Assembly (NCBI GenBank): GCA_045592785.1
Contig: JAZNVL010000060.1
Location: 2,045 to 66,044, forward strand
Source of the DNA: Victivallales bacterium
GTDB lineage: Bacteria; Verrucomicrobiota; Lentisphaeria; Victivallales; UBA1829
Direction: 5' to 3'
Length of the DNA: 64,000 nt
Part shown: one piece after another, positions 3,245 through 20,200 of the stretch
Layout of the letters: each line of letters starts with the position of its first letter
Position numbering within the stretch: position 1 is the stretch's first letter
Position numbers and translations under genes: made by a program
The notes under the pieces: model-generated
Told to the model about the DNA's origin: nothing
The model's database searches: none
Seen by the model: only the letters and a program-made list of their open reading frames with translations

Positions 3245-5293
3245 TTAATTTTTAACATAGGTAATACCAAAACTTTTGCAAGATCGATACTCCTGGAGAG
3301 AATTTTGCAACGCAAAAGTATTATTACCATCGTAGTTCTGGAAAATATCCAAGCCGCGCCCCAGAATTATTTTCCAACCGGTATCCGTGGTTATTTCCCG
3401 ATCATGAATGGTTTCATCAAATGTGTAACTGAAATGGATTCCAGCTGGCATTACCGATGTAGCAATCTGGTCAAAGAAGTCTATTTGTTTTTCAGAGCCG
3501 AAGTCATCTGCCACAGTAATGAGGTTAATGGTAATTTCTTCATCTGCAGCCTTTGTTTTGATTAATCCTTCAAACAGTTCCATAAGATTGCGGATTTGCC
3601 AGTAAGTACGCAGATACGGATCGACAATCGTTACTGTTCTTGCACCTTTGAGATGGGGAACCAGTAATTTTTCAAATGATACCCCTTTACAGTTTTCTTG
3701 AAAGGTCAAGTTACCTTCAAAAAGTTCTGCTGTTTCTGTGGATGTTACACTGACTTGCGTCAATACGGGTTGATTGGGGACATTGTTGTTCTGTCCACTG
3801 CATGTATCGTCTTCAATATCGTTTCCAGAGGAGTAATATTGTGGATATTCAGTTTCTTCCAACGTCTGTACCTTAAACGTTGTTCCCGCTTTGTCAAAAT
3901 ATTGAAATATCGGTTTTGAATAGGTATGGTCAAAACGCATGATCTGATCTTTTACCCGTTTTCTTCCTTCGACCGCAAATGACAATAATTGTGCTGTTTC
4001 TTCGGGAGTCGCATCATTATTCGGGAAAATGATTTTCATCAGACCGGACATCGTTTTCTGAACAGCATCTCTGTCGCGGGTTGAAATGGACGCATCAAGT
4101 GTAAAATACTTCTGATAATCGGCAGACCGGTCATCATCACGGAATGCTCTGAGAATTTCAGCCAGATAATCAACCACAAAACCGTACCCATCTGAAAACA
4201 TTTCGCCACGGATGATATCAACTTCCCATCCGGGAATGTAAAAGTGAATGCGGTCCAGAAATGCGGAGTCATGATATTCTTTGGGCAATTCATCAAATAA
4301 ATCTGAATTTTTAAGCATATACGGAACGCTGTGCTGCGTGTTGCCTACAAATATCATAGATGCTTCGGCACTCAATGTTTCCACGCCGCGAGAAAACGAT
4401 TTGTTTGCCATATAGTTTTTCATTATATCGACAAGACTCTTATTCGGCTTTTTCTGCTTCCCGGCAAATTCATCAAATGCGATGGCATCCCAATAGCCGA
4501 CCAGACCAAGTTTTCCATTGGAGTTATTTACAAATAATTTCGGAACGGTTACTTCTCCCCCGGATAACAAGATCCCGTGAGGTGAAAATTCCGAATAAAT
4601 GTGCGATTTACCAGTGCCTTTAGGGCCTAATTCAATCAGGTTGTAATTGCGCTCACAATAGGGAATAAGGCGCATTAACTGGAATAATTTATTGCGTGCA
4701 CCAAACATCTCCGGATTGAAACCCATACTTTGGATCAGCAGATCAATCCATTCCTCAGTCGAAAATTGTTTTCTTGATTCCAGATAAAGTTCCCGGTCGA
4801 AATAGGACAGCTGAATCGGCTTCAGTGATTCCAATACCCAGGGGCATTGCATTTTATCGTCAGAAGGCATATACTCCAATGCGGCTATACACCAAATGCC
4901 GTTAACCAATAATTTCGGATGACTTTTGATCGTCTCGGCTGGAACTAAGACCTTGCTGATTCCCAAGTTAGAAAAAGTTGCTTCGTAAACATCGGCTTTG
5001 TCATTCAGCGCAACACTGATTTTGTCAATGACTTTGTGTCTGCCTTTTTCCTTGATCGTAGACCGGATCAATCCTGCTTCATTCCGATGTACATAATGTT
5101 CCCGCAGAATGTTTTTGACAGATTCGATACCTGTTCGGATGGATTCTTCATCGCTCGTTGCGCAATATTGCCCAAGTAAATATTCAAGGACATACGTTGG
5201 CACAATGGCATTGCCTTTTACTTCCTTTACTAAATCTTTGCGAACTACAACGCCGGAAAAAGCGTTACAAATTTTTTTATCAAAGTCTGTCAT
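3245..5293 (-). CDS. brxL: BrxL-family AAA+ protein; C-terminal ~150 aa are MIT_C/PLD-like rather than a Lon protease domain
   Basis: The N-terminus MTDFDKKICNAFSGVVVRKDLVKEVKGNAIVPTYVLEYLLGQYCATSDEES closely matches the BrxL N-terminus as I recall it. Walker A is GPKGTGKSH. The C-terminus reads VTIVDPYLRTYWQIRNL...IHDREITTDTGWKIILGRGLDIF, and I saw no GxSxG/Ser-Lys Lon motif. Confidence 0.85.
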   Translation of the reverse strand: MTDFDKKICNAFSGVVVRKDLVKEVKGNAIVPTYVLEYLLGQYCATSDEESIRTGIESVKNILREHYVHRNEAGLIRSTIKEKGRHKVIDKISVALNDKADVYEATFSNLGISKVLVPAETIKSHPKLLVNGIWCIAALEYMPSDDKMQCPWVLESLKPIQLSYFDRELYLESRKQFSTEEWIDLLIQSMGFNPEMFGARNKLFQLMRLIPYCERNYNLIELGPKGTGKSHIYSEFSPHGILLSGGEVTVPKLFVNNSNGKLGLVGYWDAIAFDEFAGKQKKPNKSLVDIMKNYMANKSFSRGVETLSAEASMIFVGNTQHSVPYMLKNSDLFDELPKEYHDSAFLDRIHFYIPGWEVDIIRGEMFSDGYGFVVDYLAEILRAFRDDDRSADYQKYFTLDASISTRDRDAVQKTMSGLMKIIFPNNDATPEETAQLLSFAVEGRKRVKDQIMRFDHTYSKPIFQYFDKAGTTFKVQTLEETEYPQYYSSGNDIEDDTCSGQNNNVPNQPVLTQVSVTSTETAELFEGNLTFQENCKGVSFEKLLVPHLKGARTVTIVDPYLRTYWQIRNLMELFEGLIKTKAADEEITINLITVADDFGSEKQIDFFDQIATSVMPAGIHFSYTFDETIHDREITTDTGWKIILGRGLDIFQNYDGNNTFALQNSLQEYRSCKSFGITYVKN

Positions 5294-5304
5294 AGCAATT
5301 CACC

Positions 5305-7812
5305 TCAAAAATCCAGATCTACCAACTGACGGCGCAGCTGATATTTGCGGGTTAAATATTCGTTATAATAAGTCGTACCAGACTCAAGTTCAAGAAGCTT
5401 TAATATGATTTCCTGACCATTGTATTTTTCGGCATCGCGAGTCAATACCAAGCCGCAAGTCACTTCTCTGTCACGGGGTTCTTTGCTGGTCAAATCGAAG
5501 AATATTTCATGCTCATCAGAAATCAGCTTGTTATCTTGCGAGTAGAGACCCACTTTCAACTTCCGCGGCAGCAACTTTCCTTCTACCGGCTGCTGCTGAT
5601 AGAAACGTACCGCCATTTGACCGGATGTGATAACTTGCATACCGGAAATAATATCAATATCGACGTAAGAAAGATCCCCTTCGCGTTTTTTATTGATTTT
5701 CAATATCGGAACAACGATTTCCTGCAGTGAGGATCCACCATGCACAAAACGGCTGCCGGCTCCTTTGACTCTCAAACGATTGATGGATTTTGCGATTTGG
5801 ACTTCACAGTTCCCATTCATCTCAAGTGTTTCAAGATCGTATTTTTGCAGACCATCAACAGGGGTGAGATCTTTACCTATAACAAAGCGGCGATTCACCT
5901 TGCATACTTCTGACCCTTGTGGTTCCCCGGCCAGAAAGTCGTTAGTAGGTAATTCCCGGTTTTGATAGATGAAACCGTGATCTGCGGTGACGATAATATT
6001 TGTGGCATTGTATCCGGCCAGACGCTTTACCATCGCTATAATCTCTGTAACAGCATCTTCGATCGCTTCGCAAGTCTTTATTTCGGTTGACAAGTCATCG
6101 CCTGTTTCATCGATCGTATTGTGATAAATGTAAACGAGTTCATTTTCTTTTGCAAGGGTTCGACCTTCATCTCTTGTGAGATTCATCAGTTCACTGGCAT
6201 TCAGAACCGCTGATTTCGGAATTTTGCTGCTCAGGACTTTTGCTCTCGCTGCAGAACCAAGTGTGCTTAATCCATCGACTGTAACGGAAATATTATCGCC
6301 TTCGCCATTTAATTCTATCTTTGAATGAGGAAGCAATGCAGCCATCCCCAATGCTGTATAACTGGGGATCACACTGCAGGCGGCTTCCAACGTGGCGGTA
6401 TAACGATCCTCTAACATGATCTTGCGCTGCAATTCTTCTGCAATCTCGTAACGCAAAGCATCTGATATAATAACAAATACTTTCTTTTTCTCTACGGACA
6501 TCGGGACAATATTGTTGTTGAAAAATCTGTCCTGACGTTTCGCCCCCGGGATCGGCCATGTCTTATAGGCGGAAAGTCGGTCCTGCCAGAGATTGTTCAA
6601 TGGCAGGAGATAGTTGTTGGAATAAAAGTTTTCCACCAGATCGTAAAGTGCCTTAAGCAAATCGTTCTGATTCGCAGCATTCGCATGAAAAATAAATTTA
6701 CGGTACAATTGATCCAGTTGAAAATATTGTTTTGTGTAATTTTCGAAGCCGTTCGCAAGGGAATCCATCGTAATGGTCGTGGAACTCTGAAGACTCAAAA
6801 ACATCGATGCATAATCCAATGCCAGATACGCATGTTCCAATTTCTTGTACCAGAAGGTTTGACGGCGTTCCCGGATGATATTGGAACATTCAACGGCTGA
6901 AATCGTCCGGGAAATGATTCCTGATGCAAGATTCGTTAATATGTGTCGATCGATTTCCTTGAACAAATCCAGGGAACCGAGGTCGCTTAAATTGCGTTTC
7001 GCAAGATCTTCCACGATCGCATTCTGCAAAGTCTCTGCCACCATGGCTGAACATTTTTCAAATGAACTGCCGTATTGACGGCTGTCCTTGAAGCGTTTCA
7101 GAAATACCAGTGCTTCATCGTTCAGACGGATTTCAGACGGACAAGCGGTCGACAAGGTCATCAAATAACAGGCATGGAATAAACGGTAAGCAAAGTCTTT
7201 GACCGAGGGGGACTGTGAATGATACCCGTAATGTTCCGCTGCCTTTTTCCACAGAAAACCGCTTAAATTGTATTTTTCAATTTCTGTATACTTTGCATCA
7301 TCGCCTTCTGCGAGTTCCTGCAAAAGTCGTTCCAGGATCGAGTCCAGTCTGCGATCCACACCCACTGTCGCAGCAAGCATCTTCATGCGAATAGCGCCAT
7401 CGGAATCATGTTCTCCCAACAACTTCTTTAATGCCTGACGCCGTTTCGCAGATGTGAAAAATTGGGGATGCTCATCCGTGAGGAAGGCAAAACTGTAATT
7501 CAAACCCAGTTCGCTGAGCCAGAGAGATGCCTGATCCGCCTGGAATGTGTCGTAAGTCAGTTCCAAATTCAGCAGCCAGTTATCGCTGTCTTTGGGCGTT
7601 GGACCGGACGAAAAGACCAAAAAGCGTTTTCCTGGTTCAGCCTTTAATACCCGGTGCATGACCGCAAATTCATTGTTCTGGACTTCGATTTTTTCCACAT
7701 CGGGCAATTTTAATGCTTCAAATTCGTCATGCAGCTCACTCTTCGTATCGCGCCAGCAGACAATGCGACTCTTTTCAAATTTCTGCAGCAGGATTTTTTC
7801 GGTTGGTGTCAT
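5305..7812 (-). CDS. pglZ: PglZ (alkaline-phosphatase-superfamily BREX protein)
   Basis: 835 aa in the canonical position upstream of brxL. PglZ-domain region: VFVIISDALRYEIAEEL...TADHGF. Confidence 0.9.
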   Translation of the reverse strand: MTPTEKILLQKFEKSRIVCWRDTKSELHDEFEALKLPDVEKIEVQNNEFAVMHRVLKAEPGKRFLVFSSGPTPKDSDNWLLNLELTYDTFQADQASLWLSELGLNYSFAFLTDEHPQFFTSAKRRQALKKLLGEHDSDGAIRMKMLAATVGVDRRLDSILERLLQELAEGDDAKYTEIEKYNLSGFLWKKAAEHYGYHSQSPSVKDFAYRLFHACYLMTLSTACPSEIRLNDEALVFLKRFKDSRQYGSSFEKCSAMVAETLQNAIVEDLAKRNLSDLGSLDLFKEIDRHILTNLASGIISRTISAVECSNIIRERRQTFWYKKLEHAYLALDYASMFLSLQSSTTITMDSLANGFENYTKQYFQLDQLYRKFIFHANAANQNDLLKALYDLVENFYSNNYLLPLNNLWQDRLSAYKTWPIPGAKRQDRFFNNNIVPMSVEKKKVFVIISDALRYEIAEELQRKIMLEDRYTATLEAACSVIPSYTALGMAALLPHSKIELNGEGDNISVTVDGLSTLGSAARAKVLSSKIPKSAVLNASELMNLTRDEGRTLAKENELVYIYHNTIDETGDDLSTEIKTCEAIEDAVTEIIAMVKRLAGYNATNIIVTADHGFIYQNRELPTNDFLAGEPQGSEVCKVNRRFVIGKDLTPVDGLQKYDLETLEMNGNCEVQIAKSINRLRVKGAGSRFVHGGSSLQEIVVPILKINKKREGDLSYVDIDIISGMQVITSGQMAVRFYQQQPVEGKLLPRKLKVGLYSQDNKLISDEHEIFFDLTSKEPRDREVTCGLVLTRDAEKYNGQEIILKLLELESGTTYYNEYLTRKYQLRRQLVDLDF

Positions 7813-7817
7813 TGTGC

Positions 7818-8837
7818 TTACCCCTGTCCTTCAGAAAGTTTTTTGATCACCTTATCAAAATCAGAAACAATGGGCTGTGTCCGATTGAATACATCATATT
7901 CCGCAGTCGCTTTGGCTTTTGCCTGTGACATGGAAATTTTACCTTTATCGCCATCCATAAGGATTTGATATTTGCGGAATGCCAGAAATTCATTGATACT
8001 TGCCGCAAATTCTTCCATTGTGAAGGTGTTTTCCCGTTCGATCAAATCTTCAATGTAATCAAAATAACCGGCGACTGTCCGTTCCAATTGACGGATTTCT
8101 TTTTCCTGTAAATAATTCTTGGCAATTGTCACATCTGTCTTCAGGATCCTGCCGTCCGGTGAATTCTTCCAGGTGACCAAACCCATGTGATCTTTATTCT
8201 TGTCGGCGTGAGTAAAAACGATTTCTGCGGCAGTCTGTCCTGTGATCGCAAAATGAAACTTGTTTTGCACCATGGCGTAAAAACTCCGGGTCAATTCCGA
8301 TTCCCTGTCATAATCAATGCTGCACTCCGCAAAAATATCGGTGATCTGCTGCCAGATGCGCCGTTCAGAGCTGCGGATGGAGCGGACTCGTTCCAGGAGT
8401 TCCCGGAAGTAATCTTTACCGAAAAGAGTTTTCCCCTGCTTGAGCCGTTCATCATCCATGGCAAAACCTTTGATCATATACTCTTTCAACACTCCGGTCG
8501 CCCAGATTCGGAACTGGGTGGCACGGCGGGAGTTGACCCGGTAGCCCACGGAAATGATTGCGTCAAGGTTATAATATTTCAGTTTGCGATTTACCTGCCG
8601 ATTGCCCTCCTGGCGAACTACCGAGATTTCCTCGGCAGTTGCATTTTCTGCCAATTCTCCATCTGCGTAAATGTTTTGCAGATGGAGAGATATATTGTCA
8701 GAAGTACAATCAAACAGTGTCGCCATTCCCTTTTGAGTCAGCCAAATGGTTTCATCTTTAACGGCGGCATCAATGCGGATATCTTCTTCCGGAGTACTGT
8801 ATATGATAAATTCAAGTCCATCAGGCATAATTTTCAC
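7818..8837 (-). CDS. RhuM-family (virulence protein RhuM / Fic-DOC-associated) protein embedded between pglX(C) and pglZ
   Basis: Typical RhuM family text: ...IWLTQKGMATLFDCTSDNISLHLQNIY...NLDAIISVGYRVNSRRATQFRIWAT.... The track start is GTG at 8837, overlapping the pglX(C) stop. An alternative ATG is at 8828. Confidence 0.75.
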   Translation of the reverse strand: MKIMPDGLEFIIYSTPEEDIRIDAAVKDETIWLTQKGMATLFDCTSDNISLHLQNIYADGELAENATAEEISVVRQEGNRQVNRKLKYYNLDAIISVGYRVNSRRATQFRIWATGVLKEYMIKGFAMDDERLKQGKTLFGKDYFRELLERVRSIRSSERRIWQQITDIFAECSIDYDRESELTRSFYAMVQNKFHFAITGQTAAEIVFTHADKNKDHMGLVTWKNSPDGRILKTDVTIAKNYLQEKEIRQLERTVAGYFDYIEDLIERENTFTMEEFAASINEFLAFRKYQILMDGDKGKISMSQAKAKATAEYDVFNRTQPIVSDFDKVIKKLSEGQG

Positions 8838-10828
8838 TCCTCCTTGGCTTCGAGACCGGGGATTTTTTTCAGGGCTGCGCCGAATTTACAATAGTTGACT
8901 TTTACGCCGTCGTCAAGGTCAATGGCGATCTTTTGCTGTGCCAGAGGGAAGATGACATCACGCTCGTAGTCTTCCAGTTCGGCGAGCTGAGCGGTGTATT
9001 TGTCGATCTGCTTCAAATTCCGGGTCTTATCGGCGTTGTTGATGTCGGTACGGTTGTTTTCTTCAATGAGGTGTTTGATGCGGGTGCTGATCTTGGTCAT
9101 CAACTCCCGGAGATATTCATTGAGAACGATGCTGACGGTATCAGGCGTGTAGCGGTGCAGATAGATCAGGGCATTGAAAGAACCTTTCGGAGAACTGAAA
9201 AGCCAGTAGATGGGGCGTTTTTTGTACCGTTGGATGTGTTCTTTGTAGAAATCCTTGACAAAGTATTTGCGGATATCTTTACCCAGCACCGCTTCAATAA
9301 AGTCCATATTGGCAGTGAGGTTTTCTTCTCCAAAGGTCAACGCAACAAAAGCTTTGAATTGAGTTACGATATCATCAAAGAACCATTCTTCATCCAGTAT
9401 CGGCAATATGCCATCCCGATCCATAATAAAGTGTTTATTCTCTCCGATAACGGGATAGAAAGAGGCATAAGACGATGTTAATTGCTGCTGTCCGTCATTC
9501 GCAGAAAATGAAACCATTGCTGGATCCTGCGAAAAAATATTTGAGCCAGTCACAGTTGTTTCATAGATAATCAGGTCTTCTTCCTGACCGTTGGATTGAT
9601 TGGCAAGGATCAAGCCTGATTTTTCAGGCGAGTATCTCCCCATCAAACAACCAACAGCGTAGGAGATGAATTCTTTGATCGTATCTGAAAGCAGCCTGTC
9701 TTCCAACTCTTTATTGTAAGGAAAATTCGCAGACAATACCGGATATGCTTCTGTGGTAGCAATACCATTGGAAGAACATTCGCAAATACTGTAAACATTG
9801 TCAATAACCTGCAACTGAGATTTTTCTCCTGTAACAGCTGAAATGTGCGAAATTGTAGATGTACTGGATTTATCAAGCGTTTTGCCATATCTGTACCACG
9901 GATTACAAGTCAATGTGATTTCATCCCAAGGCACGTCAGAAGTCAATTCATCCTGTAATCCATAAGCATCTATAAAAATGCGATTATTGCTCATTTCAAG
10001 CTGACGCATCTTTTCACAATCTTCAGTCCATTTTCTGCGGACTGAATCGTAAATACTCCAAATCGGAGTCTGTTTTACCCAACGGTCGCTATTATACTCT
10101 GCGATCAATGGATTTTTCTGAAAATCCCAAGAAGTTTCATAAGAATCCCAATTGTTTTTAGAAGATTTTACGCATTTTTCAGCATTACTTCCCGCGAAAT
10201 CAGCTACAGAGTCGCAAACAGGCAATCTTCCAACAACATCAGCACCAGTATTTATTGTTGGATTAATTGTTTCCAATGCGTAGTTAAATACTTTGGTGCT
10301 CATATAGGCAAGGTATTTCATCATTTCATTTGCATTATGTGGGAAAAGACTTGCTGCAGCATGATCAAATAAAAAACCTTTTCCATAATATCTGCAATGA
10401 AATTTTCCCGATGTAATAGCAGACCAACTTATTGCCGGACGGTAATATAAATCAATATATGTTGTCCTCGGGCGATGAAATAACGCAGATAGCCGCCATT
10501 TTATAATGTACTCGTTATCCCCATACCAACGTCTGAAATCGCCACCTTTTTTACAAGGGACATATTGTTTGTCTGATTTTTCAAACTCTTGGTTATTCGC
10601 AAAATTAAAAGCAATCTCTGAGCAATCGACCTCATACCAATAACGCATAAAGCGATCATTGTCTCCTGTCGATAATCCAGAACGGATTATTGCTAAATTT
10701 TCAAACTTTTTATTATTTGCAAAGCAATTTGTCAACTTTTCTGCCCAATACGCAATCGGGCTGCCGGGGATTTTCTTAAAATCCTCAGCAGACACGCGGA
10801 AAAAGTTTTTCGATTTATCTTTAGTCAT
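8834..10828 (-). CDS. pglX: PglX C-terminal half as a separate ORF
   Basis: Starts MTKDKSKNFFRVSAEDFKKIPGSPIAYW...GLSTGDNDRFMRYWYEV. In full-length PglX/Eco57I-like methyltransferases this segment directly follows the methyltransferase lobe. No methyltransferase motifs are present in this ORF. Its ATG overlaps the upstream stop (ATGA). Confidence 0.85.
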   Translation of the reverse strand: MTKDKSKNFFRVSAEDFKKIPGSPIAYWAEKLTNCFANNKKFENLAIIRSGLSTGDNDRFMRYWYEVDCSEIAFNFANNQEFEKSDKQYVPCKKGGDFRRWYGDNEYIIKWRLSALFHRPRTTYIDLYYRPAISWSAITSGKFHCRYYGKGFLFDHAAASLFPHNANEMMKYLAYMSTKVFNYALETINPTINTGADVVGRLPVCDSVADFAGSNAEKCVKSSKNNWDSYETSWDFQKNPLIAEYNSDRWVKQTPIWSIYDSVRRKWTEDCEKMRQLEMSNNRIFIDAYGLQDELTSDVPWDEITLTCNPWYRYGKTLDKSSTSTISHISAVTGEKSQLQVIDNVYSICECSSNGIATTEAYPVLSANFPYNKELEDRLLSDTIKEFISYAVGCLMGRYSPEKSGLILANQSNGQEEDLIIYETTVTGSNIFSQDPAMVSFSANDGQQQLTSSYASFYPVIGENKHFIMDRDGILPILDEEWFFDDIVTQFKAFVALTFGEENLTANMDFIEAVLGKDIRKYFVKDFYKEHIQRYKKRPIYWLFSSPKGSFNALIYLHRYTPDTVSIVLNEYLRELMTKISTRIKHLIEENNRTDINNADKTRNLKQIDKYTAQLAELEDYERDVIFPLAQQKIAIDLDDGVKVNYCKFGAALKKIPGLEAKEE
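10783..10828. repeat. Direct repeat copy 1 (functional 5' end of pglX(C))
   Basis: cctcagcagacacgcggaaaaagtttttcgatttatctttagtcat. On the minus strand it encodes MTKDKSKNFFRVSAE. Confidence 0.9.
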
Positions 10829-11853
10829 TTTAAATTACCCTCAGAAATATTTTTATTGATCCAAACAGGGGTATCTGAATACGTAATAGTTTGAGTCTCT
10901 CCATCTATGGATATGTTCTCTATTTCATGAAGAGATACTGAACTCGTATGGTTGCATTTGGAAATAATAGAAGCAACTTTTATCATGTCTGATAATGTGA
11001 TTTTTTTAGGTGGCATGATATCATATAAGTCTTTTCCTGCTCTTGTCAGACGATGCCCAGTTAAAACAATATCATACTTAGATACAATTTTTAAAACATA
11101 ACCTGTTCTGATAAAAAAGATGATATTATTTGAATTTTCAGCTTTTTTACATTGCCTTTCGGCTTTTTGAGGATTGATCAACTCCGCATCTTGTAAAGTC
11201 AAAATATCACTGAACGTACCAGTGGCAGGCTCATCTTCTGCGTTTGTCAACAAAAAGCCTTCACTAATACCAATATTCAATTTTTCAAATAATTGCGCTT
11301 CTTCCCGAGATAATTTCTTCGCCACTTCCAAGGTACGTGGCGAGATGGAATGCGGCTTTTTTGTTTCTTCAACCAACAAATGAGCCCACCATTGCCGCAA
11401 ATCATCATCGTCGATCAACTCAGCTTCAGCCCGCCAGCGATTGAAAAAGGTTTGGTTTATAGGATCTGAAGATATGTTTTCTTCCGGAATTTGTTTTATT
11501 TCAACGCCTGCCGTAAAAATTGCAGCAGCCAAACGTTTTGCTTTCAATATGGAATCTACATTTACAATTTCCCGGCAAAGCATGTCAATACTTGACACTT
11601 CTGGCAAAGAAATCATTTTTTTTGCCGCAATATCGTACCTTGAGATGCCATCTTTAATTTCAGAAGCATCCCTTTCTGCTTGTGCTTCAATTCGTTTAGC
11701 TTCTCCGATCCTTTTTTCAACCAAAGGACCATAAGCTGCATAAAGGATTTTTCCAAATCCCTTATGCGTATCTTTGGTCATCTCGGTAATATCTTCCGCA
11801 GGCTTAGTCAAATCAGCATTGATATCTATTTTAACAGGCGAAATATCACACAT
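10825..11853 (-). CDS. Abi-alpha / DUF2806-DUF4393-like protein (candidate abortive-infection component)
   Basis: The central segment FFNRWRAEAELIDDDDLRQWWAHLLVEETKKPHSISPRTLEVAKKLSREEAQLFEKL matches the pattern I recall for these families (...W..f...a..vsd..mq.lWa.iLa.E...p.s.S.rTl..l..Ls..eA.lF..l). The gene is AT-rich and is flanked by the 46-bp direct repeat. Confidence 0.55.
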   Translation of the reverse strand: MCDISPVKIDINADLTKPAEDITEMTKDTHKGFGKILYAAYGPLVEKRIGEAKRIEAQAERDASEIKDGISRYDIAAKKMISLPEVSSIDMLCREIVNVDSILKAKRLAAAIFTAGVEIKQIPEENISSDPINQTFFNRWRAEAELIDDDDLRQWWAHLLVEETKKPHSISPRTLEVAKKLSREEAQLFEKLNIGISEGFLLTNAEDEPATGTFSDILTLQDAELINPQKAERQCKKAENSNNIIFFIRTGYVLKIVSKYDIVLTGHRLTRAGKDLYDIMPPKKITLSDMIKVASIISKCNHTSSVSLHEIENISIDGETQTITYSDTPVWINKNISEGNLK

Positions 11854-11905
11854 TTTTAGCCTCCGCCGACACCCGGAAAAAGTTTTTCGATTTATCTGTG
11901 GTCAT
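11846..11905 (-). other. 19-codon relic ORF (MTTDKSKNFFRVSAEAKNV*) bridging the 343-aa gene and the Abi-alpha-like gene
   Basis: Its ATG overlaps the upstream stop (ATGA at 11902-11905). Its TGA (11846-11848) lies 3 nt inside the next gene, whose ATG is at 11851-11853. The relic therefore preserves translational coupling. Confidence 0.6.
11860..11905. repeat. Direct repeat copy 2 (orphan duplicate of the pglX(C) 5' end)
   Basis: cctccgccgacacccggaaaaagtttttcgatttatctgtggtcat. 41 of 46 nt are identical to copy 1. On the minus strand it encodes MTTDKSKNFFRVSAE. Confidence 0.9.
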
Positions 11906-12933
11906 TGTTGTTCCTCGCGAATTTCAACATTGTATGCGACTCCGAATTTCGGAGGTTCATTATTAACTTCCTTTTTCTCAACGAGCGGTTCCCATTCAAA
12001 TATACTTTGCTGCCACATTACATCCGGAGCTGAAATTTTATTCTCGCTTATCCATAATGCAACATCCCTATAAATCAAATGTGAAATTCTAGAGGCCTTT
12101 GATAATATTTGTAATATTATCCCATTGAGTGAAAAGAGAATGAAAGGAAGCTTGTCTTTATTCAAGTATATTTCATTAACTTTTTTTCGCAATTCATCTT
12201 TTTTAATATTTTGAGGACCATGCAAAATAAGAGTTCCGTATTGAAAAATTTCTATAAGTTCTTTGTTCGTTGTTGCAAAATTTTGTGTAATTGATTGATT
12301 TGGAGCTTCCTGTAAAAAATCATTTATCTCCCGCACCTTATTCTTTAAAAAATCTTGCTTTTCAGAATTTGATGAATGTTTCTTAAATATATTGACTGCA
12401 TTTTTTATCATATTGTCATGATCGTCTATCAGTTGCCGAATATATAACAAGGCAAAAGCGGTCAGTTCTAATGATGGGAAATCACCGCGAGCCAAACCGT
12501 CTCCATTCATATTGTACTGAAGTATCGGTTTGTTTTTGTACCATGAACTATTTTGAATAACTTGTACAAGTTGGATAAAATGTGCAATGATATCAGATTC
12601 CTGTTGCGTCATATCTTTTCCAGTAGCATCTTGCTTATATGGATTGTTTAGATTATATATGTACTCCTCCATAGTAATCATTCTTTCCATATATCCGTCT
12701 TCATAGCAACGAAAAAGCTGCCCATTTTTATCTTTCAAAATAATACAATGCATTGCTTCACAATAAGAAATCAACGAATCCGGAGAACCATTTTCATCAT
12801 ATAACACTGCAAATTCATATCCATCTGGAATAGTAAATTTTTCTTGCATTAAGGTTTTCCATGTATCAATGCGTTCGCAACTGTTATCATTTTGCTTTTT
12901 ATATTCCTCTTCAGAAGATATATTGATATTCAT
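11902..12933 (-). CDS. Hypothetical protein, 343 aa, no domain recognised
   Basis: Long AT-rich ORF with 4-nt overlaps to neighbours on both sides. I recognise no motif. Confidence 0.6.
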   Translation of the reverse strand: MNINISSEEEYKKQNDNSCERIDTWKTLMQEKFTIPDGYEFAVLYDENGSPDSLISYCEAMHCIILKDKNGQLFRCYEDGYMERMITMEEYIYNLNNPYKQDATGKDMTQQESDIIAHFIQLVQVIQNSSWYKNKPILQYNMNGDGLARGDFPSLELTAFALLYIRQLIDDHDNMIKNAVNIFKKHSSNSEKQDFLKNKVREINDFLQEAPNQSITQNFATTNKELIEIFQYGTLILHGPQNIKKDELRKKVNEIYLNKDKLPFILFSLNGIILQILSKASRISHLIYRDVALWISENKISAPDVMWQQSIFEWEPLVEKKEVNNEPPKFGVAYNVEIREEQQ

Positions 12934-14228
12934 TTTCTATTCCCCTGCTCTTTACCTGATGATAAAAAGTTCTTCCTTAAGGCGATTTCTAATTCTTCGA
13001 TTTGCTTTTTCAAAGCAGCAATTTCAGCATAAAGTTTTTGTTTTTCCAGTGCGAATCCAGCAGTGGCAGCATTATATTTCTTTTCCAATCCGGAAAGAGT
13101 ATCCTGTGCTTTTTTCAAATCTGCCTGCAAGCGGTTTGTTTTCTGCATAAGTTTTACATCATCTTGTGAAACTATGGTACCTTTTTCTAATGCGACTTTC
13201 ACATTACTTGATTTTTCTATATGAATTTTAGGGGAACAAAAAGATTTGTTTTGCAAAATTTCAATAATTTTTTCATGGTTATCGGTACAATAATCAAAAA
13301 TTGCAAGTCCAATTTGTACAATAACACCAACAAAGGCAATACCAATCGCAACATATGACAAATTCGTATTTTTCTTGGCGTCAACTTTAGATGCTTTAAA
13401 ATTATTTTGAGATGCGGTAAGTAACTCATTTACCGTATTGCCATTTTTTTCTGCAGTTCTTACTTGTTCCGCAATTTTGTCATTGTTTTCTTTAGCTTTA
13501 TCTACCAATTTTTCAATATTTTTCTGCGTCAATTGAGACGCATTGAGCAACTTACCTGCATTTTCATCAAATTTAGCTAAAAACATAGACAATGTAGCAT
13601 TAATATCAGAAGTGTCTTGCTGTATCTTAGAAAAAGCAATCTCATCCGCCTTTAGTTCCGTTTTTTTCCGTAATTCACGAAAAGCTTCTTGTTCTTCCGG
13701 TTCATTCTTCTTTATTTTTTCTGCAGTTTCTTTCAATTCCTTCAAATCATGCCGGAGAACATTGTCTTCTTCATTTTCTTCTACAGAACTTGAATTGGAA
13801 AACTCTTGTTCAGCATTGATGGCCTCTTGAATATTCTTTTGATAATCTATAACCGTACTAGACAATGCGGCGTTGCATAATGCATCTCCCATTCTTTTGT
13901 ATGCAGCTATCGTCTCTTGCATCACATGGGGAGCTGCAAGAACTTTATTTACTTGTTGTTGAATTTTAGAATAATTTTGAAACAACTTTTGACGGATTTC
14001 ACTATCAACGGCACTAAGCAAGTTACAAGAGTTTTTTAATTTTTCATTCAAGCTGATTACTGCTTTTATTGCCTCTGGATTCCTTATTTGTTCCAACTTG
14101 GCTTGCATATTAGTTTTTTCACGGTAAAGGTTATGCAATGGATTATTATTGATTTTAAGGCTAGTCATACTTTTTTTATTCTCTTTTTGAGAAGAGGATT
14201 CTGTGTTTTTTTTATTTTCTTCACTCAT
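12930..14228 (-). CDS. Membrane-anchored coiled-coil protein, 432 aa
   Basis: One hydrophobic helix (LSYVAIGIAFVGVIVQIGLAIF), flanked by long K/E/Q-rich heptad-like stretches, e.g. the C-terminal LQADLKKAQDTLSGLEKKYN...AEIAALKKQIEELEIAL. A GGAAG lies upstream of the ATG. Confidence 0.6.
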   Translation of the reverse strand: MSEENKKNTESSSQKENKKSMTSLKINNNPLHNLYREKTNMQAKLEQIRNPEAIKAVISLNEKLKNSCNLLSAVDSEIRQKLFQNYSKIQQQVNKVLAAPHVMQETIAAYKRMGDALCNAALSSTVIDYQKNIQEAINAEQEFSNSSSVEENEEDNVLRHDLKELKETAEKIKKNEPEEQEAFRELRKKTELKADEIAFSKIQQDTSDINATLSMFLAKFDENAGKLLNASQLTQKNIEKLVDKAKENNDKIAEQVRTAEKNGNTVNELLTASQNNFKASKVDAKKNTNLSYVAIGIAFVGVIVQIGLAIFDYCTDNHEKIIEILQNKSFCSPKIHIEKSSNVKVALEKGTIVSQDDVKLMQKTNRLQADLKKAQDTLSGLEKKYNAATAGFALEKQKLYAEIAALKKQIEELEIALRKNFLSSGKEQGNRK

Positions 14229-14243
14229 TGTGTTGCTTCCTGA

Positions 14244-15287
14244 TTATGATTTTTTTATGACAGCGGTCTCTTTTGCTAACTCGGTTTCCAATTGCTCAAT
14301 TGATGGAAGAGATGATTTCAGATTTTCTGGAATAGATCGGGTCAATTCGTACTCTGAAATCCCGATTGGTTTATGAATATCCTGCAACGCATATTCTGCA
14401 ACAACTTTGTCTTTTGTCTTACAGAGTAAAAGTCCTATTGTCGGAGCATCCTGTTCACTCTTCAATTGACGATCAACTGCTGTTACATAAAAACTCAGTT
14501 GCCCGATATGCTCAGGCTTGAATGCCGCTGTTTTTAATTCAATAACAATGTAACAATGTAATTTGATATGATAGAACAGTAAATCTACATAAAAGTCTTG
14601 CTCTCCAACTTCTAAATGTACCTGTTTTCCTACAAAAGCAAAACCATCCCCCAATTCCAACAGAAAATTTGTTACATGTTGAACCAGAGCATGTTCAATA
14701 TCCCGTTCCTGAGCTTCCTGTCCTAATCCGAGAAAATCAAGTTTATATGGATCTTTCAAACACTCTATTGCCAAATCCGATTGTGGCGCAGGTAAGGTCA
14801 TAGAAAAATTGTTGGCTGCCTGTCCGATCCTTTTTGCCGTATCAAGTTCAATGTGGTGAACCATTGCATTGCGCGACCAACCATTTTTTACAGCAAGGCT
14901 CGCATATACAAGACGTTCTGATTTTTTAGAAAGTTTATCAAGTAAAGTTACCTGGTGATACCATGGCAATTGTCCAAGCGGCTCTTGGACAATTTCTGCT
15001 TCCGTCCAAGCCGCAGCAAATCCTCTCATATACATGAGGTTCGCCCGCGAAAAACCTTTCATTTCCGGAAAGGCGGTCCGCAAATCGTCTGCAAGGCGTG
15101 TAATTACTTTTGCGCCCCATCCTTGCATCTTTTGCCGTTCTAAAATTTCATGTCCAATTTGCCAATACAAACGGATAAGTTCAAGATTTACCGCTCGGGC
15201 TGCCTGTAGTTGAGTATTGGCAATTCGCTGTTTTAAATCGGATAACCATTGACTGTAATCTGAACTGATAAAATTAAAATCTTTCAT
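14244..15287 (-). CDS. DUF1016 / YhcG-like PDDEXK nuclease
   Basis: Family-typical N-terminus: ...LKQRIANTQLQAARAVNLELIRLYWQIGHEI. PD-(D/E)xK core: FYVDLLFYHIKLHCYIVIELK. Its ATG overlaps the pglX(N) stop. Confidence 0.8.
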   Translation of the reverse strand: MKDFNFISSDYSQWLSDLKQRIANTQLQAARAVNLELIRLYWQIGHEILERQKMQGWGAKVITRLADDLRTAFPEMKGFSRANLMYMRGFAAAWTEAEIVQEPLGQLPWYHQVTLLDKLSKKSERLVYASLAVKNGWSRNAMVHHIELDTAKRIGQAANNFSMTLPAPQSDLAIECLKDPYKLDFLGLGQEAQERDIEHALVQHVTNFLLELGDGFAFVGKQVHLEVGEQDFYVDLLFYHIKLHCYIVIELKTAAFKPEHIGQLSFYVTAVDRQLKSEQDAPTIGLLLCKTKDKVVAEYALQDIHKPIGISEYELTRSIPENLKSSLPSIEQLETELAKETAVIKKS

Positions 15288-17221
15288 CGTACCGCCTCCC
15301 GGAACATTGCGGCTTTTTCGGCTTCGTTGTTGCCGTCAACCAAACGGATGAAGGCTCCTTTGTAATCAGGGATGAGCGTATTGGTCATGGTAAAGGCTGT
15401 GGTCTGTACTACTTCGCCGCCGATGGAGTCAAAACCTCTGGCTCCCAAGTGCGCCATTGACAGAATGGTATTTTCATCCAGCAGTTTTGTCCGCAGTTTT
15501 TCAAAGGAAGAGAGAAACATCCAACTCTGCATAGTGATCATACCAATCGTTCCCTGATGCTGCACCAACTCCAAACACCGTTCAATAAACATGGCAAAGA
15601 GGTCGGATTTACTGTCGGAATAAAATCTTTCTGCAAAGCGTTTCAAGTCTGCATTCATACCTTTGCCGCCCATGTACGGGGGATTGGTCACTACTACATG
15701 GTATTTCTGTGAAAGATAGTCCGCCTGACAAAGCACTTTTTGAAGATTTTTATACTCTGCATCTTCAAAAAGTAAGTGATTAGTGGTTAGTGACCAGTTG
15801 TCAGAAGATTGCGAATAGCGATCAGAAAAGTATTCAGACAAAGCCATAAGTTTTTCGGATGAAAGTTTGGGGTGCAGCAAAGACCCCATGCAATCCGCTT
15901 TATCAAACATATTTATATCATGCAAGAAATCATCTGATTTACATCCAACTTGCTTACACGCTTCCTCAAACTGACCACTAAACACTGACCACTGACCACT
16001 GAAATTCTCCAGCACGCAAATCTGCGGGCGTGGAGAATTTTCTCGCCGCAGGAATCGGCTGTCATATTCTCTGGCTTTCATCGTCAGAGCAAATGCTGCC
16101 AGTTCTCCGGCTCGGGTGTCGATTTCCACTCCATGCAGATTTTTGAGCAATATCAGTGTTGGGATCTTCCGGCGGTCGTAGCCCTCTTCCTCATAAATTT
16201 TGACCAATAGATCAAAGGCATAGGTCAACATGTGTCCAGAACCGCAGCACGGATCGCAGATGCGAATTTCTTCCGGCGAAGAAATTTTTAAGTGGCTAGT
16301 GGCTAGTGTCCAGTGGTCAGATTTTTGCTGATTACCAGCCACTTCCCCATCACTAACCACTGCCCACTGATCACTGCCCACTTTTCCATCACTAGCCACT
16401 GAACACTGATCACTATCCACTGGAATATAGTATTCCATTTCGTCCGCTAACTTGGAGTTGGGGTGGTTGAGCATCCACAACCGTCCCAGAGAATTCTGCA
16501 CCAGATACCGCACGATCCAATCCGGCGTAAACAACTGGGTCGCCGCCGGAATGTCTTCGGTCTTGACGGTTTTGCCCATTACTTCATCTTTTTTTTCGGA
16601 AATATAGAACTGATAGAGCCATCCGATGACTTCCACGCCGTCCGCAGCCACATCTTCGGTAATGGCATCACGGGTCTTCATGAGTATAGAGTTCTCTTTC
16701 ATCAAATCATCGGGTAGCAGCAGCTCCGTATAATCATCGATTTTCTGAAACAGAAACGGCATCACCTTATTATAAGCGTTACACGCCGAAACCAGCAGCA
16801 GCTTATAGGCTTCAGCCTGACCATCTACCGCAGGGATTGAACCATCCAGCAATCCCTTGATACGCGTCCGATATTTGGAGTCGGCTACAAATGTTTCATC
16901 AATATTGCCGCCTTTGGCTTCTTCAAGGATCTCCGGCTGAAAATGCCCCGGCAAGGGCGAAACAATGCGAATGGAGTTATACCCCATCACATCCATAAAA
17001 CGCAATGCACAGAACCGGTTGAACCAAGTGTAAGCGATTTTATCGATCAACGCTTCATCGCCCAAGGCTTTGCGTGTTTTTTCCAATTCTGCCACAGCCT
17101 GCGGCTTTTCACGGCGGGCAGCACTGTTTTCAGCCAGCACCAACGGCAGAAGAGCCTTGACGATCTTCTGCAACTCCCGGCGGGCATCCTGGGCAAATCT
17201 TTTCAACCGATTCGTATCCAT
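15284..17221 (-). CDS. pglX: PglX N-terminal half (N6-adenine methyltransferase lobe) as a separate ORF
   Basis: Motif I: ICDPCCGSGHML. Motif IV: VVTNPPYMGGKGMN. The PglX-like N-terminal helical region (...WFNRFCALRFMD...) is present. The ORF ends just before the segment that pglX(C) begins with. Confidence 0.9.
   Translation of the reverse strand: MDTNRLKRFAQDARRELQKIVKALLPLVLAENSAARREKPQAVAELEKTRKALGDEALIDKIAYTWFNRFCALRFMDVMGYNSIRIVSPLPGHFQPEILEEAKGGNIDETFVADSKYRTRIKGLLDGSIPAVDGQAEAYKLLLVSACNAYNKVMPFLFQKIDDYTELLLPDDLMKENSILMKTRDAITEDVAADGVEVIGWLYQFYISEKKDEVMGKTVKTEDIPAATQLFTPDWIVRYLVQNSLGRLWMLNHPNSKLADEMEYYIPVDSDQCSVASDGKVGSDQWAVVSDGEVAGNQQKSDHWTLATSHLKISSPEEIRICDPCCGSGHMLTYAFDLLVKIYEEEGYDRRKIPTLILLKNLHGVEIDTRAGELAAFALTMKAREYDSRFLRRENSPRPQICVLENFSGQWSVFSGQFEEACKQVGCKSDDFLHDINMFDKADCMGSLLHPKLSSEKLMALSEYFSDRYSQSSDNWSLTTNHLLFEDAEYKNLQKVLCQADYLSQKYHVVVTNPPYMGGKGMNADLKRFAERFYSDSKSDLFAMFIERCLELVQHQGTIGMITMQSWMFLSSFEKLRTKLLDENTILSMAHLGARGFDSIGGEVVQTTAFTMTNTLIPDYKGAFIRLVDGNNEAEKAAMFREAVR
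15775..16001. repeat. Inverted pair of heptamer-periodic patches inside pglX(N)
   Basis: Plus strand 15775-15804: AGTGATT AGTGGTT AGTGACC AGTTGTC AG. Plus strand 15971-16001: CTGACCA CTAAACA CTGACCA CTGACCA CTG. They are translated in frame as SDNWSLTTNHL and SGQWSVFSGQ. Confidence 0.85.
16291..16423. repeat. Second inverted pair of heptamer-periodic patches inside pglX(N), just upstream of motif I
   Basis: Plus strand 16291-16320: AGTGGCT AGTGGCT AGTGTCC AGTGGTC AG. Region 16336-16423 is an array of NNNCCAC-type heptamers containing a 39-nt tandem duplication (VDSDQCSVASDGK / VGSDQWAVVSDGE). AGTGGCTAGTG (16291-16301) is the exact reverse complement of 16390-16400. Confidence 0.85.
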
Positions 17222-17239
17222 AAAAGTTTTATCTCCTTA

Positions 17240-20200
17240 TCAAAGTTGGATCCGCTTGCCGGATTTAAGTTTTTCCTGCAGATCTTTGCGGAGTTTTTCC
17301 AATTCACTCTGCCACAGAGCCATATATTCAGCAAGGTCTTCTTCGCTTTCCAGCCACGGTTTGCTGAAACTGACTTTCGCTTTGGGCATCGGAACGGATT
17401 CAATGGGCTTTTCTTCTACCACAGGATGTGCCAATGTGTAAAGTTGTTCCAGAAGTTTTTTGTAACGTTCATTTTCGAATTTTTGTAATCTTCCCTGAAC
17501 GCTGTAAATACTGTTCTGAGCATTGATATCCTCAAGGTTTTCAGAAAAGACAGCAAGCAACGCAGTTTGCTGCGCAGTATCCAGTAATGCGAAATCCGGT
17601 TTTTGTTTGAATTCCAGCTGCAAGTTTTCAATGCGTTTGTGACTGCAATCAATCTCATTGCGCAGAAGCTCGTTGAGCTGTTTTGTCAATAATTCCGTCA
17701 ACTCTTTCAAGCGATTCATCCGATTGCCTTTGAAGCAGTGCGGAGAACTCAATATATCTTCAAATTCCCGACGTTCTGCAACAAGGACATCCGACGGGAA
17801 ATCTATGTAGTTGTGCCGCTGAAAGTTTTTTGCTGTATCAAAAATCTCTTTTGCGTTGCCAGTCATGAAGGATATAACCGGATCGATACAGTCTTCTTTA
17901 TCATCGCACAGCACATCCAGATCACCCGGTTTACATTCGGTGAAGAAATATGCGGCAGGTTTACTTGCAAATTTTTTCAATCTGAGGAGCGGATCCAGCA
18001 ATTCACCCTGGAAAGGATAATGGCTGCGTGTGGCGTTATAGCCTTCCAAGGTCGCCACAAGCTCTTTCAGCTTCCGGATCAGGTCATTACCCAACTGCTT
18101 TGGATCTTCTGCATTGGCCGGTTCCTGGAAGTAGTCGACGTAGAATTCCTTGACACGTTTGACCTGATGGGGTTCGTAGTCCAATTGCAGTTCCAGCGTA
18201 ACGTTATCATGACAATGAGAGTTTTTCAGAGCTGCGATCTGTTTTTCTGCATCAAGCAGTTCTCCATCGGACCGCATTTCCAATTTATTACGGATCGACA
18301 GTTGTGCAAGCAGACAGAAGATCGCCGCATCATACCAGCCATAGGGACGGGCGGAGAGTTTATCTTTCAGGCTTTTAAGCGTTGTTCTCAACCCATTGTT
18401 TTTATTGGCGCGCAGTAAATTGAGGATCTCAGTTTCGGCTTCAGACAAGGTTGGAGAAAACAGGTTCGGGGTTGCATTCCGGTAATATGCAGGAATATTG
18501 TTTTCTGTGTATGGCGTGCCTTCAATCATTTTGAGGTTTGGATAGATCGTCTGGATCAACTCCTGGCATCCGCTTATGATCAATTGTTTTGCATTTTCGC
18601 TTTTCAGTTCACAAACACGCCCGTTGATAAAAAATTGGGCTTGGGAGATGAGTGATTCCGTGCGGACTTTGATCTCACGTTCTCTATCCCGGTTACCGAT
18701 CATTTTGTTATCCAGAATGCGTCTGATATTTTCGTTTTGCGTGTTGCCGTTCAGTTTTGCGTACTTTTCCGTTCTCAGCAGAAGGGTGACATCGACCATT
18801 AAACGGGAGTCAGAAGGCAATACGATAAACAGTTCCGCTTTGCCCATAGATTCCGTTAAGAATTCATCATACCGATACGATTCCTGCCATGGTGTAATAA
18901 CATGAATCGCCAGTTCCCGTTCCGCATTGAGATTGCGTCCATCCATTTTTTTACAGAATGTGTAATCATAGCCGGTCGTGACACAGCGGACTTTCATACC
19001 GCCGATGATCTGTTCAAAGATGATCTTGTTTAATATTTCCAAAACATCTGCGGTATCGATTGCTGTATTTTTGATTTCTTTTTCGATATCCTGTTCTTCA
19101 TCGGTCAGGTATTCGTAATATTCACCATTGCGCTGGATATAGGACTGGCTTTCCAGTTTATTGAGGGATTCCTGAACTCTTTTCAACAAATCCGGAGCGT
19201 TTTCAGCAAATGATTCCCGCATCAGCACTGTCATATTGCGTGCCGTAGCCCGGAACGTCCGTACATATTTGACCAGGAACAGAGTTTTCAATGTCCGGAT
19301 GGTGAATATATCATCCGGCATTTGATTTTCTGCCGTATGAATCGCCCGTACCGCATTGGATTTTACGGAATGCCTGATCCCCTCATACATCAAGTCAAAA
19401 GGTGCAATGCAGCCAAGCTCTTTTGATGCAAGATTTTTTGCAACCTCCTGAAATACTCCCAGCATAGAACGTTCCCCTACAGAATTGTGACGTCCTTCAA
19501 AAATGTTGTGTTCAGACAGATTCTGAATTGCGGTCTGGAACAACCCGAATTGATACGGGATAAAGGGATAACAGGAAATAAAATCCTGAGCATCCGTAAA
19601 ATTCTTGTAGACCGTTGCGCCGTCTGTAAAGTTGAACAGAGTCTTGAAGTTGTTGCTTTGTTCCGCATAGATCTTGTTCAGTTGTGGTACAAAGTCGTCC
19701 TTCTTAGCCAGCAGACGTTTGCGGATTACTTCATCGACGTTGGCACTGGTCAATTTCAATCTGTTTGCAAAACGGGCCTGGATCTTTGAAAAGTCGTTGC
19801 CTTGTTTTTTGCCGATTTCACCGAAAACGCTGGTCATATCTTCCTGGGCTGTCACAATGATCCATGCCTGACCACGGCAAACGGTAGCAAGTTCTTCTGC
19901 CAAACTTTGCAGATTGAGCATCAATTGGGTATTGTCTGCAATATACTGTCCCACTTCATCGACAAAAAAGTTCAAACGGAATCCTTTCGGTTGTTTATCG
20001 ATGTAGGACTTTATCATTTTTGCGAAATCTTCAATCGAAAGGTTATAGTCCTTACGATATTTATCGATGATCCCGTTTGCCGTTTCCACCGGTTCGCCGG
20101 AGACTTCAGCATAGGCCTTTGCAATATTGCGTCCTTCCAGGATGGCTTGTGTTCTCCCCTTATCCCAAGTTTTTTTGGATATGTTCTGGAATGCGTCCTT

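Follow-up and report, generated by a model that had tools for sequence, protein, structure and literature searches.

A probable recombination-driven cassette bay inside a naturally split BREX type 1 pglX

Introduction

Why are four genes located inside pglX in the bacteriophage exclusion (BREX) type 1 operon of a Victivallales bacterium (GenBank assembly GCA_045592785.1), and do they make up a single defense system? The operon is in contig JAZNVL010000060.1, and we analyzed a stretch of 64,000 nucleotides (nt) of that contig (positions 2,045 to 66,044 of the forward strand), here called the window; its first letter is position 1 of all coordinates, unless another locus is named. A first-pass annotation, made from the sequence alone, had recognized the four genes and proposed that the last three act as one unit, guarded by PglX, that would serve as a second line of defense when BREX is inhibited.

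We compared the window with related loci, designated by L numbers. Nearly all of them are from a few gut and rumen metagenome projects and from metagenome-assembled genomes (MAGs) of the Planctomycetes-Verrucomicrobia-Chlamydiae (PVC) group, and all of the loci with a split pglX were recovered by searching with the proteins encoded in the gap. Based on these comparisons, we believe that the pglX of this BREX-1 operon is naturally split and houses a cassette bay driven by recombination, and we give this reading a probability of about 0.6.

Results

The two halves of pglX are intact and abut

The BREX type 1 gene set (brxA-brxB-brxC-pglX-pglZ-brxL) was present in one cluster (3245-21950, minus strand), with open reading frames (ORFs) in the order brxA, brxB, brxC, pglX-N, the cassette, pglX-C, rhuM, pglZ, and brxL. 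All of the BREX genes other than pglX were intact in the window, and their products were 70-87% identical in amino acid (aa) sequence to those of loci with Pfam matches to BrxA, BrxB, BrxC, PglZ, and BrxL. Instead of a single PglX of ~1200 aa, there were two ORFs of 645 and 664 aa with four genes in between, in agreement with the first-pass annotation.

The upstream ORF, pglX-N (15284-17221, minus strand; 645 aa), encodes a helical bundle and an N6-adenine methyltransferase domain, and had Pfam matches to Eco57I, N6_Mtase, and MmeI_Mtase. The downstream ORF, pglX-C (8834-10828, minus strand; 664 aa), encodes the target-recognition domain (TRD), spacer helices, and the C-terminal region. PglX-N covered positions 1-619 and PglX-C positions 620-1173 of the PADLOC PglX model PDLC02521, and the two covered positions 1-645 and 650-1209 of the NCBIfam model BREX_1_MTaseX (693 and 598 bits, with a cut-off of 500). 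When aligned to the solved Salmonella PglX (8c45), PglX-N ended at about residue 635 and PglX-C started at about residue 639. Because the halves abut in this way, we consider the split to be seamless. It is ~25-35 residues ahead of the boundary between the N-terminal (methyltransferase) and C-terminal (TRD) domains given in PMC11341690.

Intact pglX halves were found in at least eight related loci, in which pglX-C was only 50-56% identical in aa sequence and had no stop codons; PglX-N was 90% identical to that of L019. The split, the ATGA stop/start overlaps, and the ribosome-binding site in the left anchor (see below) were kept in these loci. In addition, PADLOC has separate models of ~600 aa for each half of PglX, indicating that split forms exist in reference genomes. 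By analogy, the two halves presumably reassemble like HsdM and HsdS. The conserved split and the PADLOC models, together with the full length of both halves and the intact state of the other BREX genes, argue against the view that pglX was merely broken by foreign DNA, leaving a dead or decaying BREX operon and an unrelated cassette. That view would fit the foreign composition of the inserted block and the two decayed loci (L025 and L049) that have pglX-C fragments and transposases, and we think that it is highly improbable.

There were several short repeats in pglX-N (15970-16002, 16291-16316, 16357-16382, and 16328-16421), in both orientations within the coding sequence. These include heptanucleotide arrays (CAGTGGT-like, 3.7-4.7 copies), a 39-nt repeat present 2.4 times, and a 37-nt inverted pair (78% complementary) around the region encoding the CGSGH (GxG) S-adenosylmethionine (SAM)-binding motif. 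The repeats encode peptide inserts of the SDQW/SGQW type. Across related loci, PglX-N ranged from 596 to 756 aa and nucleotide alignments broke at the repeats, and slippage or length variation is possible.

The gap is bounded by conserved anchors and the block between them is mosaic

The left anchor is the last ~50 nt of pglX-N (15287-15336, minus strand) and contains a GGAGG ribosome-binding site and the ATGA overlap for the next gene. It was 94-100% identical in most of the loci compared, whether the next gene encoded DUF1016 or one of two proteins that we call T and U, and was more diverged in L035 and L037. The right anchor is the first 84 nt of pglX-C (MTKDKSKNFFRVSAEDFKKIPGSPIAYW; 10745-10828, minus strand). 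It was 92-100% identical across loci, whichever gene preceded it (U, SduA, or the gene for a third protein, D), and the TRD was unalignable straight after it.

In L012, L015, L003, and L027, brxC was 93-97% identical at the nucleotide level, yet the cassettes and the TRDs differed. The backbone of the window was only 75-78% identical in nucleotide sequence to related loci, yet segments of the variable block had close relatives: 15728-13791 was 91-93% identical to L012 and L008, 13133-11860 was 96.9% identical to L008, and 11905-10736 was 98.4-98.7% identical to L025 and L049. The first ~600 nt of the window TRD, after the anchor, were 99% identical to L027, whose brxC was only 75% identical. 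The DUF1016 protein was 96-100% identical to the copies in L008, L012, and L049, and synonymous divergence (dS) of its gene was 0.08-0.2, whereas dS of brxC was saturated. The close relatives of these segments, the diverged backbone, and the low dS of the DUF1016 gene indicate that the variable block moves between diverged BREX backbones. According to the alignments, recombination at the right anchor would reassort the TRD independently of the embedded genes.

Four genes of foreign composition occupy the gap

The cassette contains, in order on the minus strand, the genes for a DUF1016 protein and for T, U, and D. The GC content at third codon positions (GC3) was 0.27-0.32 in all four, compared to 0.41-0.52 in brxB, brxC, pglX-N, the RhuM gene, pglZ, and brxL, 0.37 in brxA, and 0.35 in the TRD part of pglX-C. 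This supports a foreign composition of the cassette genes. The three distal genes had been singled out by eye as AT-rich, which was correct, and the DUF1016 gene is equally low in GC3.

Stop/start overlaps of the ATGA type were present at pglX-N/DUF1016, T/U, and D/pglX-C only. They had been described for the cassette as a whole; there are 15 nt between the DUF1016 gene and T, and a 48-nt spacer between U and D. There was a promoter-like site on the minus strand at 22068-22041, in the promoter region of brxA, and a terminator-like site at 3131-3119. A terminator scan found no strong internal minus-strand terminator in the operon, and the numbers of internal promoters and terminators were at or near those expected from shuffled sequence, with none convincing on the operon strand within the cassette. 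In searches against Rfam, only two tRNAs, distant from the locus, were found.

All four genes appear to be under purifying selection, judging from the ratios of nonsynonymous to synonymous substitution rates (dN/dS), which were lowest for DUF1016 (0.02-0.04), followed by D (0.13-0.23), U (0.19-0.31), and T (0.38-0.43). The value of 0.31 for U, from the comparison with L008, is based on ~30 substitutions.

The first gene encodes a DUF1016/YhcG PD-(D/E)xK nuclease of 347 aa (14244-15287, minus strand), a well-known family associated with restriction-modification (R-M) and BREX operons. The assignment in the first-pass annotation was confirmed by Pfam matches to DUF1016_N (E = 1.5e-39) and YhcG_C (E = 3.3e-66) and by a full-length match to PADLOC PDC-S02 (PDLC04831; E = 1.3e-156 over residues 2-341). 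DUF1016 and RhuM genes have been reported to be enriched beside invertible PglX and HsdS genes (PMC9881135).

T (12930-14228, minus strand; 432 aa) is a predicted single-pass membrane protein with coiled coils on both sides of the helix, as had been proposed. The predicted transmembrane helix is at aa 288-315 (13284-13367, minus strand; maximum of 2.6 in a 19-residue Kyte-Doolittle window), and heptad-patterned stretches are at aa 51-113 and 358-419. There was an excess of lysine and arginine on the N-terminal side of the helix, which weakly suggests that the N terminus is inside. Among 37 homologues, the conserved parts were the helix with its juxtamembrane region and the C-terminal coiled coil, and the N-terminal helical region was variable. 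Sequence searches of the PDB with T returned generic coiled coils only and nothing specific.

U (11902-12933, minus strand; 343 aa) belongs to a rare family, and the full-length family was represented by only five clusters among 5.8 billion proteins. The copy in the window is truncated: it is without the ~75-aa N-terminal domain of its homologues of 400-422 aa. The C-terminal domain of ~200 aa was found in 186 representative proteins and is absent from Pfam and PADLOC. In keeping with the earlier description of U as a protein without a recognizable domain, it had no match in Pfam, NCBIfam, PADLOC, or PHROG. Foldseek searches of PDB and BFVD with the AlphaFold2 (AF2) model (mean confidence, pLDDT, of 91.6) gave nothing at E<1e-3, and a sequence search of the PDB returned nothing. 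In L001, L002, and L011, from a 5-Mb genome, the neighbors of U were DUF3800, transposases, and an unrelated protein of 464 aa.

D (10825-11853, minus strand; 342 aa) is a DUF2806 (Abi-alpha-like) protein. It matched DUF2806 (PF10987) at residues 122-192 with 54.3 bits, above the gathering cut-off of 24.5, and many of its 85 homologues had precomputed matches to both DUF2806 and Abi_alpha. The core motif is QTFFNxWRxEAExIDDxDLRxWWAxLLVEE...SISPRTL. The AF2 model (pLDDT of 78) combines long helices at the N terminus with the conserved helical core of DUF2806 and an alpha/beta domain at the C terminus; there was no PDB match by sequence or by Foldseek with this model (E<1e-3).

T, U, and D thus match no named system as judged by PADLOC 2.0, whose database is dated 2023 and whose coverage excludes newer systems: T and U and their homologues had no match, and D matched no named system. 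We also considered, and rejected, a phage or plasmid origin; IMG/VR and PLSDB contained no relatives of T or U, and D had only two distant matches in IMG/VR and two among plasmids.

The cassette is probably a patchwork of separately acquired modules

The contents of the gap differed among loci. Between pglX-N and pglX-C, the genes were DUF1016, T, and D in L012-L014; T and D in L015-L017 and in L018, which also has an AAA_15/21 pair ahead of pglX-N; a T-like gene, D, and a 1285-aa SIR2_2 protein in L035, whose BrxC is 56% identical; full-length U (422 aa) and D in L003-L006 and L019; DUF1016, T, and U in L008; and DUF1016, T, a Trypsin_2-like gene, and SduA (Shedu) in L027-L029. In L037, pglX-N was followed by D. 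In searches of all fetched loci with hidden Markov models, T, U, and D were found together in the window only.

A short duplication separates U from D in the window. This duplication, which we refer to as the scar (11860-11906, minus strand; repeat D2), reproduces over 47 nt the beginning of pglX-C, i.e., of the right anchor. It is identical at 42 of 47 positions (89%) to the pglX-C start at 10829-10783 in the window, and 100% identical to the genuine pglX-C start of L012. In the closest relatives of U (L008-L010, 95% aa identity), pglX-C is directly after U, with an ATGA overlap and no D. The scar makes a 19-codon mini-ORF (11905-11846) that has an ATGA overlap with the stop codon of U and ends 4 nt into D, and its GGAGG, 6 nt ahead of the D ATG, is the ribosome-binding site for D. 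Because the mini-ORF overlaps both the U stop and the D start, translational coupling could be relayed across the scar. The scar and D are joined at a GGAG that is common to the anchor and to the 3' end of the T genes that normally precede D ('...CAGGAGACTAAAAATGAGTGAT'), which points to a microhomology join.

The scar and D also occur together elsewhere. The sequence from the scar through D to the start of pglX-C was 98.4-98.7% identical over 1170 nt in L025, L026, and L049, and there it comes after a 992-aa reverse-transcriptase protein and before a broken pglX-C and a transposase. L049 (5290-11382) is a decayed hybrid that contains an HsdM_N fragment, DUF1016 (96% nucleotide identity to the window), the reverse-transcriptase protein, the scar with DUF2806 (98.4%), a pglX-C fragment of 118 aa, and the transposase. 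By eye only, the C terminus of the L049 reverse-transcriptase protein is PD-(D/E)xK-like. In L027, the scar and the first ~55 nt of D (10425-10530) are left over ahead of a full-length SduA gene and a gene for a trypsin-like protease (9750-11787), indicating successive replacement of cassettes.

Based on these comparisons, the four genes are best described as a patchwork and not as one three-gene system. The proposal that T, U, and D form a unit was not upheld: elsewhere there was T with D, U with D, T with U, D alone, or T with SduA, the scar parts U from D, and the segments of the cassette have their closest relatives in four kinds of locus. We considered that U, D, and T might be distant homologues of each other, since this would explain their interchangeability, and rejected it; hhalign gave probabilities of ≤0.1% for U versus D and for U versus T (T versus D was not compared).

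A different possibility is that T and D are an undescribed two-gene defense system, consisting of a membrane-anchored coiled-coil sensor or effector and a DUF2806 protein, that is split in the window by U and the scar, with U and DUF1016 as passengers. T was directly upstream of D with overlaps of 4-8 nt in L012, L015, L018, and the divergent L035; the T|D junction ('GGAGACTAAAAATGAGTGAT') was conserved, and the scar and D join at the same GGAG in the window; and the helix and C-terminal coiled coil of T were kept across the loci with both genes. However, T never accompanied D outside BREX, nor did it in L003, L019, and L037; T was without D in L008, L027, and L030, and the two genes are 1.1 kb apart in the window. 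We regard this two-gene reading as a tentative possibility, and as stronger than the PrrC-like guard discussed below.

DUF2806 proteins are associated with BREX and type I R-M operons

The DUF2806 family was found almost only in BREX or type I R-M operons or beside other defense genes, consistent with the earlier suggestion that the location suits an embedded accessory defense. Homologues of D with 32-38% identity were in the type I R-M operons of L020, L021, L023, L036, L040, and L046, which are from Kiritimatiellae and Victivallales MAGs and metagenome contigs. Further homologues adjoined genes for OLD, AAA_16, Mrr, TIR, AbiV, YobI, or DUF1016, and on an Acinetobacter plasmid a D homologue was beside TIR and RES genes. 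In L030, a type III R-M locus, T and Shedu were neighbors. In three of the type I R-M operons (L021 12266-15973, L023 12229-15891, and L046 6723-10373), DUF2806 was followed by an orphan of 304-402 aa and then by a YobI-like P-loop nucleoside triphosphatase of ~1220 aa, and this neighborhood, in Kiritimatiellae-type contigs, may be a module of its own.

The position of D brings to mind a guard. The gene prrC sits between hsdM and hsdS (EcoprrI/PrrC), and the slot between the M-like and S-like halves of PglX mirrors it. By analogy, one or more of D, T, and U would be inactive as long as they are bound to the halves of PglX or to the BREX complex; a phage anti-BREX factor (an Ocr-like DNA mimic or a SAM lyase), by disturbing PglX, would release a toxicity that aborts the infection. 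This would fit the apparently tight translational coupling of the cassette to both pglX halves and the adjacency of D to specificity genes, which held for most loci: D precedes pglX-C in the window, L003, L012, L015, and L018, and follows hsdS in L020, L021, L023, and L046. It would also fit the properties of Belisama, a DUF2806 protein from a Vibrio cholerae integron cassette that is toxic if over-expressed and provides an abortive-type defense, with unrecoverable lysis of cultures at a high multiplicity of infection (10.1101/2024.07.02.601686).

Several findings speak against such a guard, and we think that it is unlikely. U (L001, L007, and L011), T (L030), and D (L022, L024, L038, L041, and L053) also occur without PglX. 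Shedu, a stand-alone system that does not need an R-M partner, uses the same slot, and independent recombination of cassettes and TRDs is difficult to reconcile with co-adapted protein interfaces. The embedded proteins did not resemble PrrC, RloC, or any other known guard in sequence or in fold, and T, U, and D had no matches to ABC ATPases or anticodon nucleases in Pfam, NCBIfam, or PADLOC. The analogy with PrrC is one of position only.

The embedded proteins might instead be accessory factors of the split PglX, acting in its assembly, its regulation, or control of BREX self-toxicity, and not independent immunity genes. The gap was occupied in every split-pglX locus recovered through the searches with embedded proteins, with D the commonest occupant, and D accompanies type I HsdS genes too. 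However, the content of the gap is not constant (L008 is without D, and L027 has only the D scar and Shedu), and D is also found away from any methyltransferase, beside TIR, OLD, and Mrr genes; we consider this explanation very unlikely. A more elaborate idea is that splitting PglX between the methyltransferase and the TRD is an adaptation that makes BREX a docking platform. D, with T or U as a partner, would monitor the PglX-N:PglX-C interface by physical contact, and these proteins would become abortive-infection effectors once phage anti-BREX proteins (Ocr-like mimics or SAM-depleting enzymes) force it open. This seems to us improbable. If true, BREX would have its own counterpart of the PrrC guard, made up of protein families whose folds are new.

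Other accessory positions in the operon

A gene of the RhuM family (7818-8837, minus strand; Virulence_RhuM, E = 3e-105; PADLOC PDC-S05) is between pglX-C and pglZ, with start/stop overlaps, and was at the same position in all related complete loci. The operon seems to have a second slot for accessory genes here, more stable than the one in pglX. L003 has an additional orphan gene (240 aa) there. Another position for embedded genes is between brxC and pglX-N, where L018 (728-2288) has genes for an AAA_15/AAA_21 ATPase and a 177-aa protein.

Discussion

We think that the locus is best explained by a cassette bay in a pglX that is naturally split. One half of PglX would carry the methyltransferase and the other would carry target recognition, and the two would reassemble in the manner of HsdM and HsdS. 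Homologous recombination at the anchors, with occasional microhomology joins, would allow strains to swap embedded genes and TRDs independently, as the mosaicism and the scars suggest. The cassette in the window would consist of at least three separately acquired modules: DUF1016; T with truncated U, probably from an allele in which U abutted pglX-C; and the scar with D. All of the cassette genes would be expressed from the brxA promoter, with translation coupled through the ATGA overlaps and the scar mini-ORF. Their function is suggested by context, which supports the reading as embedded accessory defense: they might provide add-on or back-up immunity, with DUF1016 as a nuclease, D as an abortive-infection effector like Belisama, and T as a membrane-anchored partner.

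Several observations weigh against this interpretation. T and U have no recognizable domain, fold, or match in defense databases (Pfam and PADLOC for T), and the truncated U could be decaying. The link of D to known defense proteins is partly borderline: the DUF2806 part of the original assignment is firm, and the Abi_alpha (PF14337) match, at 28.6 bits (E = 1.7e-6), is just under the cut-off of 29 bits; the match to PADLOC PDC-S47 is weak (E = 3.6e-4) and covers residues 118-194 of 342 (77 residues). The isolated C-terminal domain of PglX could not be expressed (PMC11341690). The argument for co-transcription comes solely from the gene overlaps and the lack of strong terminator-like sites. 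The pairing of T with D recurs in four lineages, in which the genes overlap tightly, and might represent a genuine two-gene system that was interrupted secondarily in the window. Lastly, the narrow origin of the loci limits the generality of the comparison.

Effectors embedded in BREX loci are familiar, including BrxU/GmrSD on pEFER and PARIS in the BREX locus of Salmonella. Accessory or back-up effectors in BREX loci have been described in a survey of nucleases (PMC12839542), and Shedu is present in 87 BREX loci (10.1101/2023.08.10.552793). The locus analyzed here is similar in that extra defense genes are in the core operon and presumably co-expressed, one of them encodes a PD-(D/E)xK protein (DUF1016), and sister loci have Shedu. 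It differs in that the site is inside pglX, between intact halves and conserved anchors, and in that it holds the non-nuclease orphans T, U, and D. Nowhere does the text of PMC12839542 use the word "split".

Type I R-M operons also carry accessory genes near hsdM, hsdS, and hsdR, including those for PrrC (EcoprrI), DUF1016, RhuM, Abi and SLFN proteins, and PADLOC PDC-S candidates. As in the window, accessory genes separate M-like and S-like genes, and the DUF1016, RhuM, and D families are found in both settings. Unlike those operons, the host here is BREX, with no classical restriction subunit, and neither an ATPase like that of PrrC nor an anticodon-nuclease domain is encoded in the cassette. 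D resembles Belisama, compared by domain description only, in its DUF2806 domain, its weak Abi-alpha similarity, and its carriage in a mobile cassette. Belisama is a single gene in the V. cholerae superintegron; in contrast, D is ~340 aa with an extra C-terminal alpha/beta domain, and its gene is located in the BREX and R-M operons of PVC-group bacteria, where T or U often precedes it.

A BREX-1 PglX encoded on two genes has been reported in Brevibacterium casei, in which, according to the authors, the arrangement varies the middle of the protein and keeps the ends constant (PMC9881135). There, the split is after the variable TRD region, and programmed inversions are the source of the variation. 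Here, it precedes the TRD and corresponds to about residue 636 of the Salmonella PglX. We saw no invertase beside the operon, and variation appears to come from exchange of alleles, with genes lodged in the gap. An analogy can also be drawn with integron arrays and hsdS shufflons, in which promoter-less genes are exchanged at conserved boundaries of a fixed expression platform. Here, we saw no integrase, attC sites, or inverted hsdS copies, and exchange seems to depend on ordinary homologous recombination at anchors in coding sequence, with microhomology joins in addition. In the literature that we searched, there was no account of a pre-TRD split as an anchor-bounded cassette bay, of the T and U families, or of the pairing of T with D.

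The intact, conserved halves suggest that PglX is workable as separate methyltransferase and specificity subunits, which bears on the mechanism of BREX and on the re-engineering of PglX specificity (PMC11341690). The fixed anchors could be used as bait for gene discovery; the occupants so far are Shedu, SIR2, reverse transcriptase, DUF1016, DUF2806, and the orphan families T and U. The different cassettes and TRDs of strains whose brxC genes are 93-97% identical suggest that, in what is probably a gut bacterium, BREX specificity and back-up immunity are mixed and matched at the level of the population. There is also a correction to be made: three adjacent orphan genes in this cassette do not make one new system.

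Other features of the window

Downstream of brxL, on the plus strand, are genes for a 453-aa protein (42-1403) with a weak match to a Piwi domain (E = 3.4e-5, below the cut-off) and for a 276-aa protein without a match (1464-2294). These two may be a short prokaryotic Argonaute pair, in which case the area would be a defense island. On the other side of the operon, between the promoter region of brxA and a DUF4357 gene (23143-24105), there is a GC-rich patch (22450-23000; GC content of 0.556, compared to ~0.36 on either side). Both strands of the patch contain overlapping ORFs, and the Rfam search found nothing in it. The two tRNA genes are at 25489-25669.

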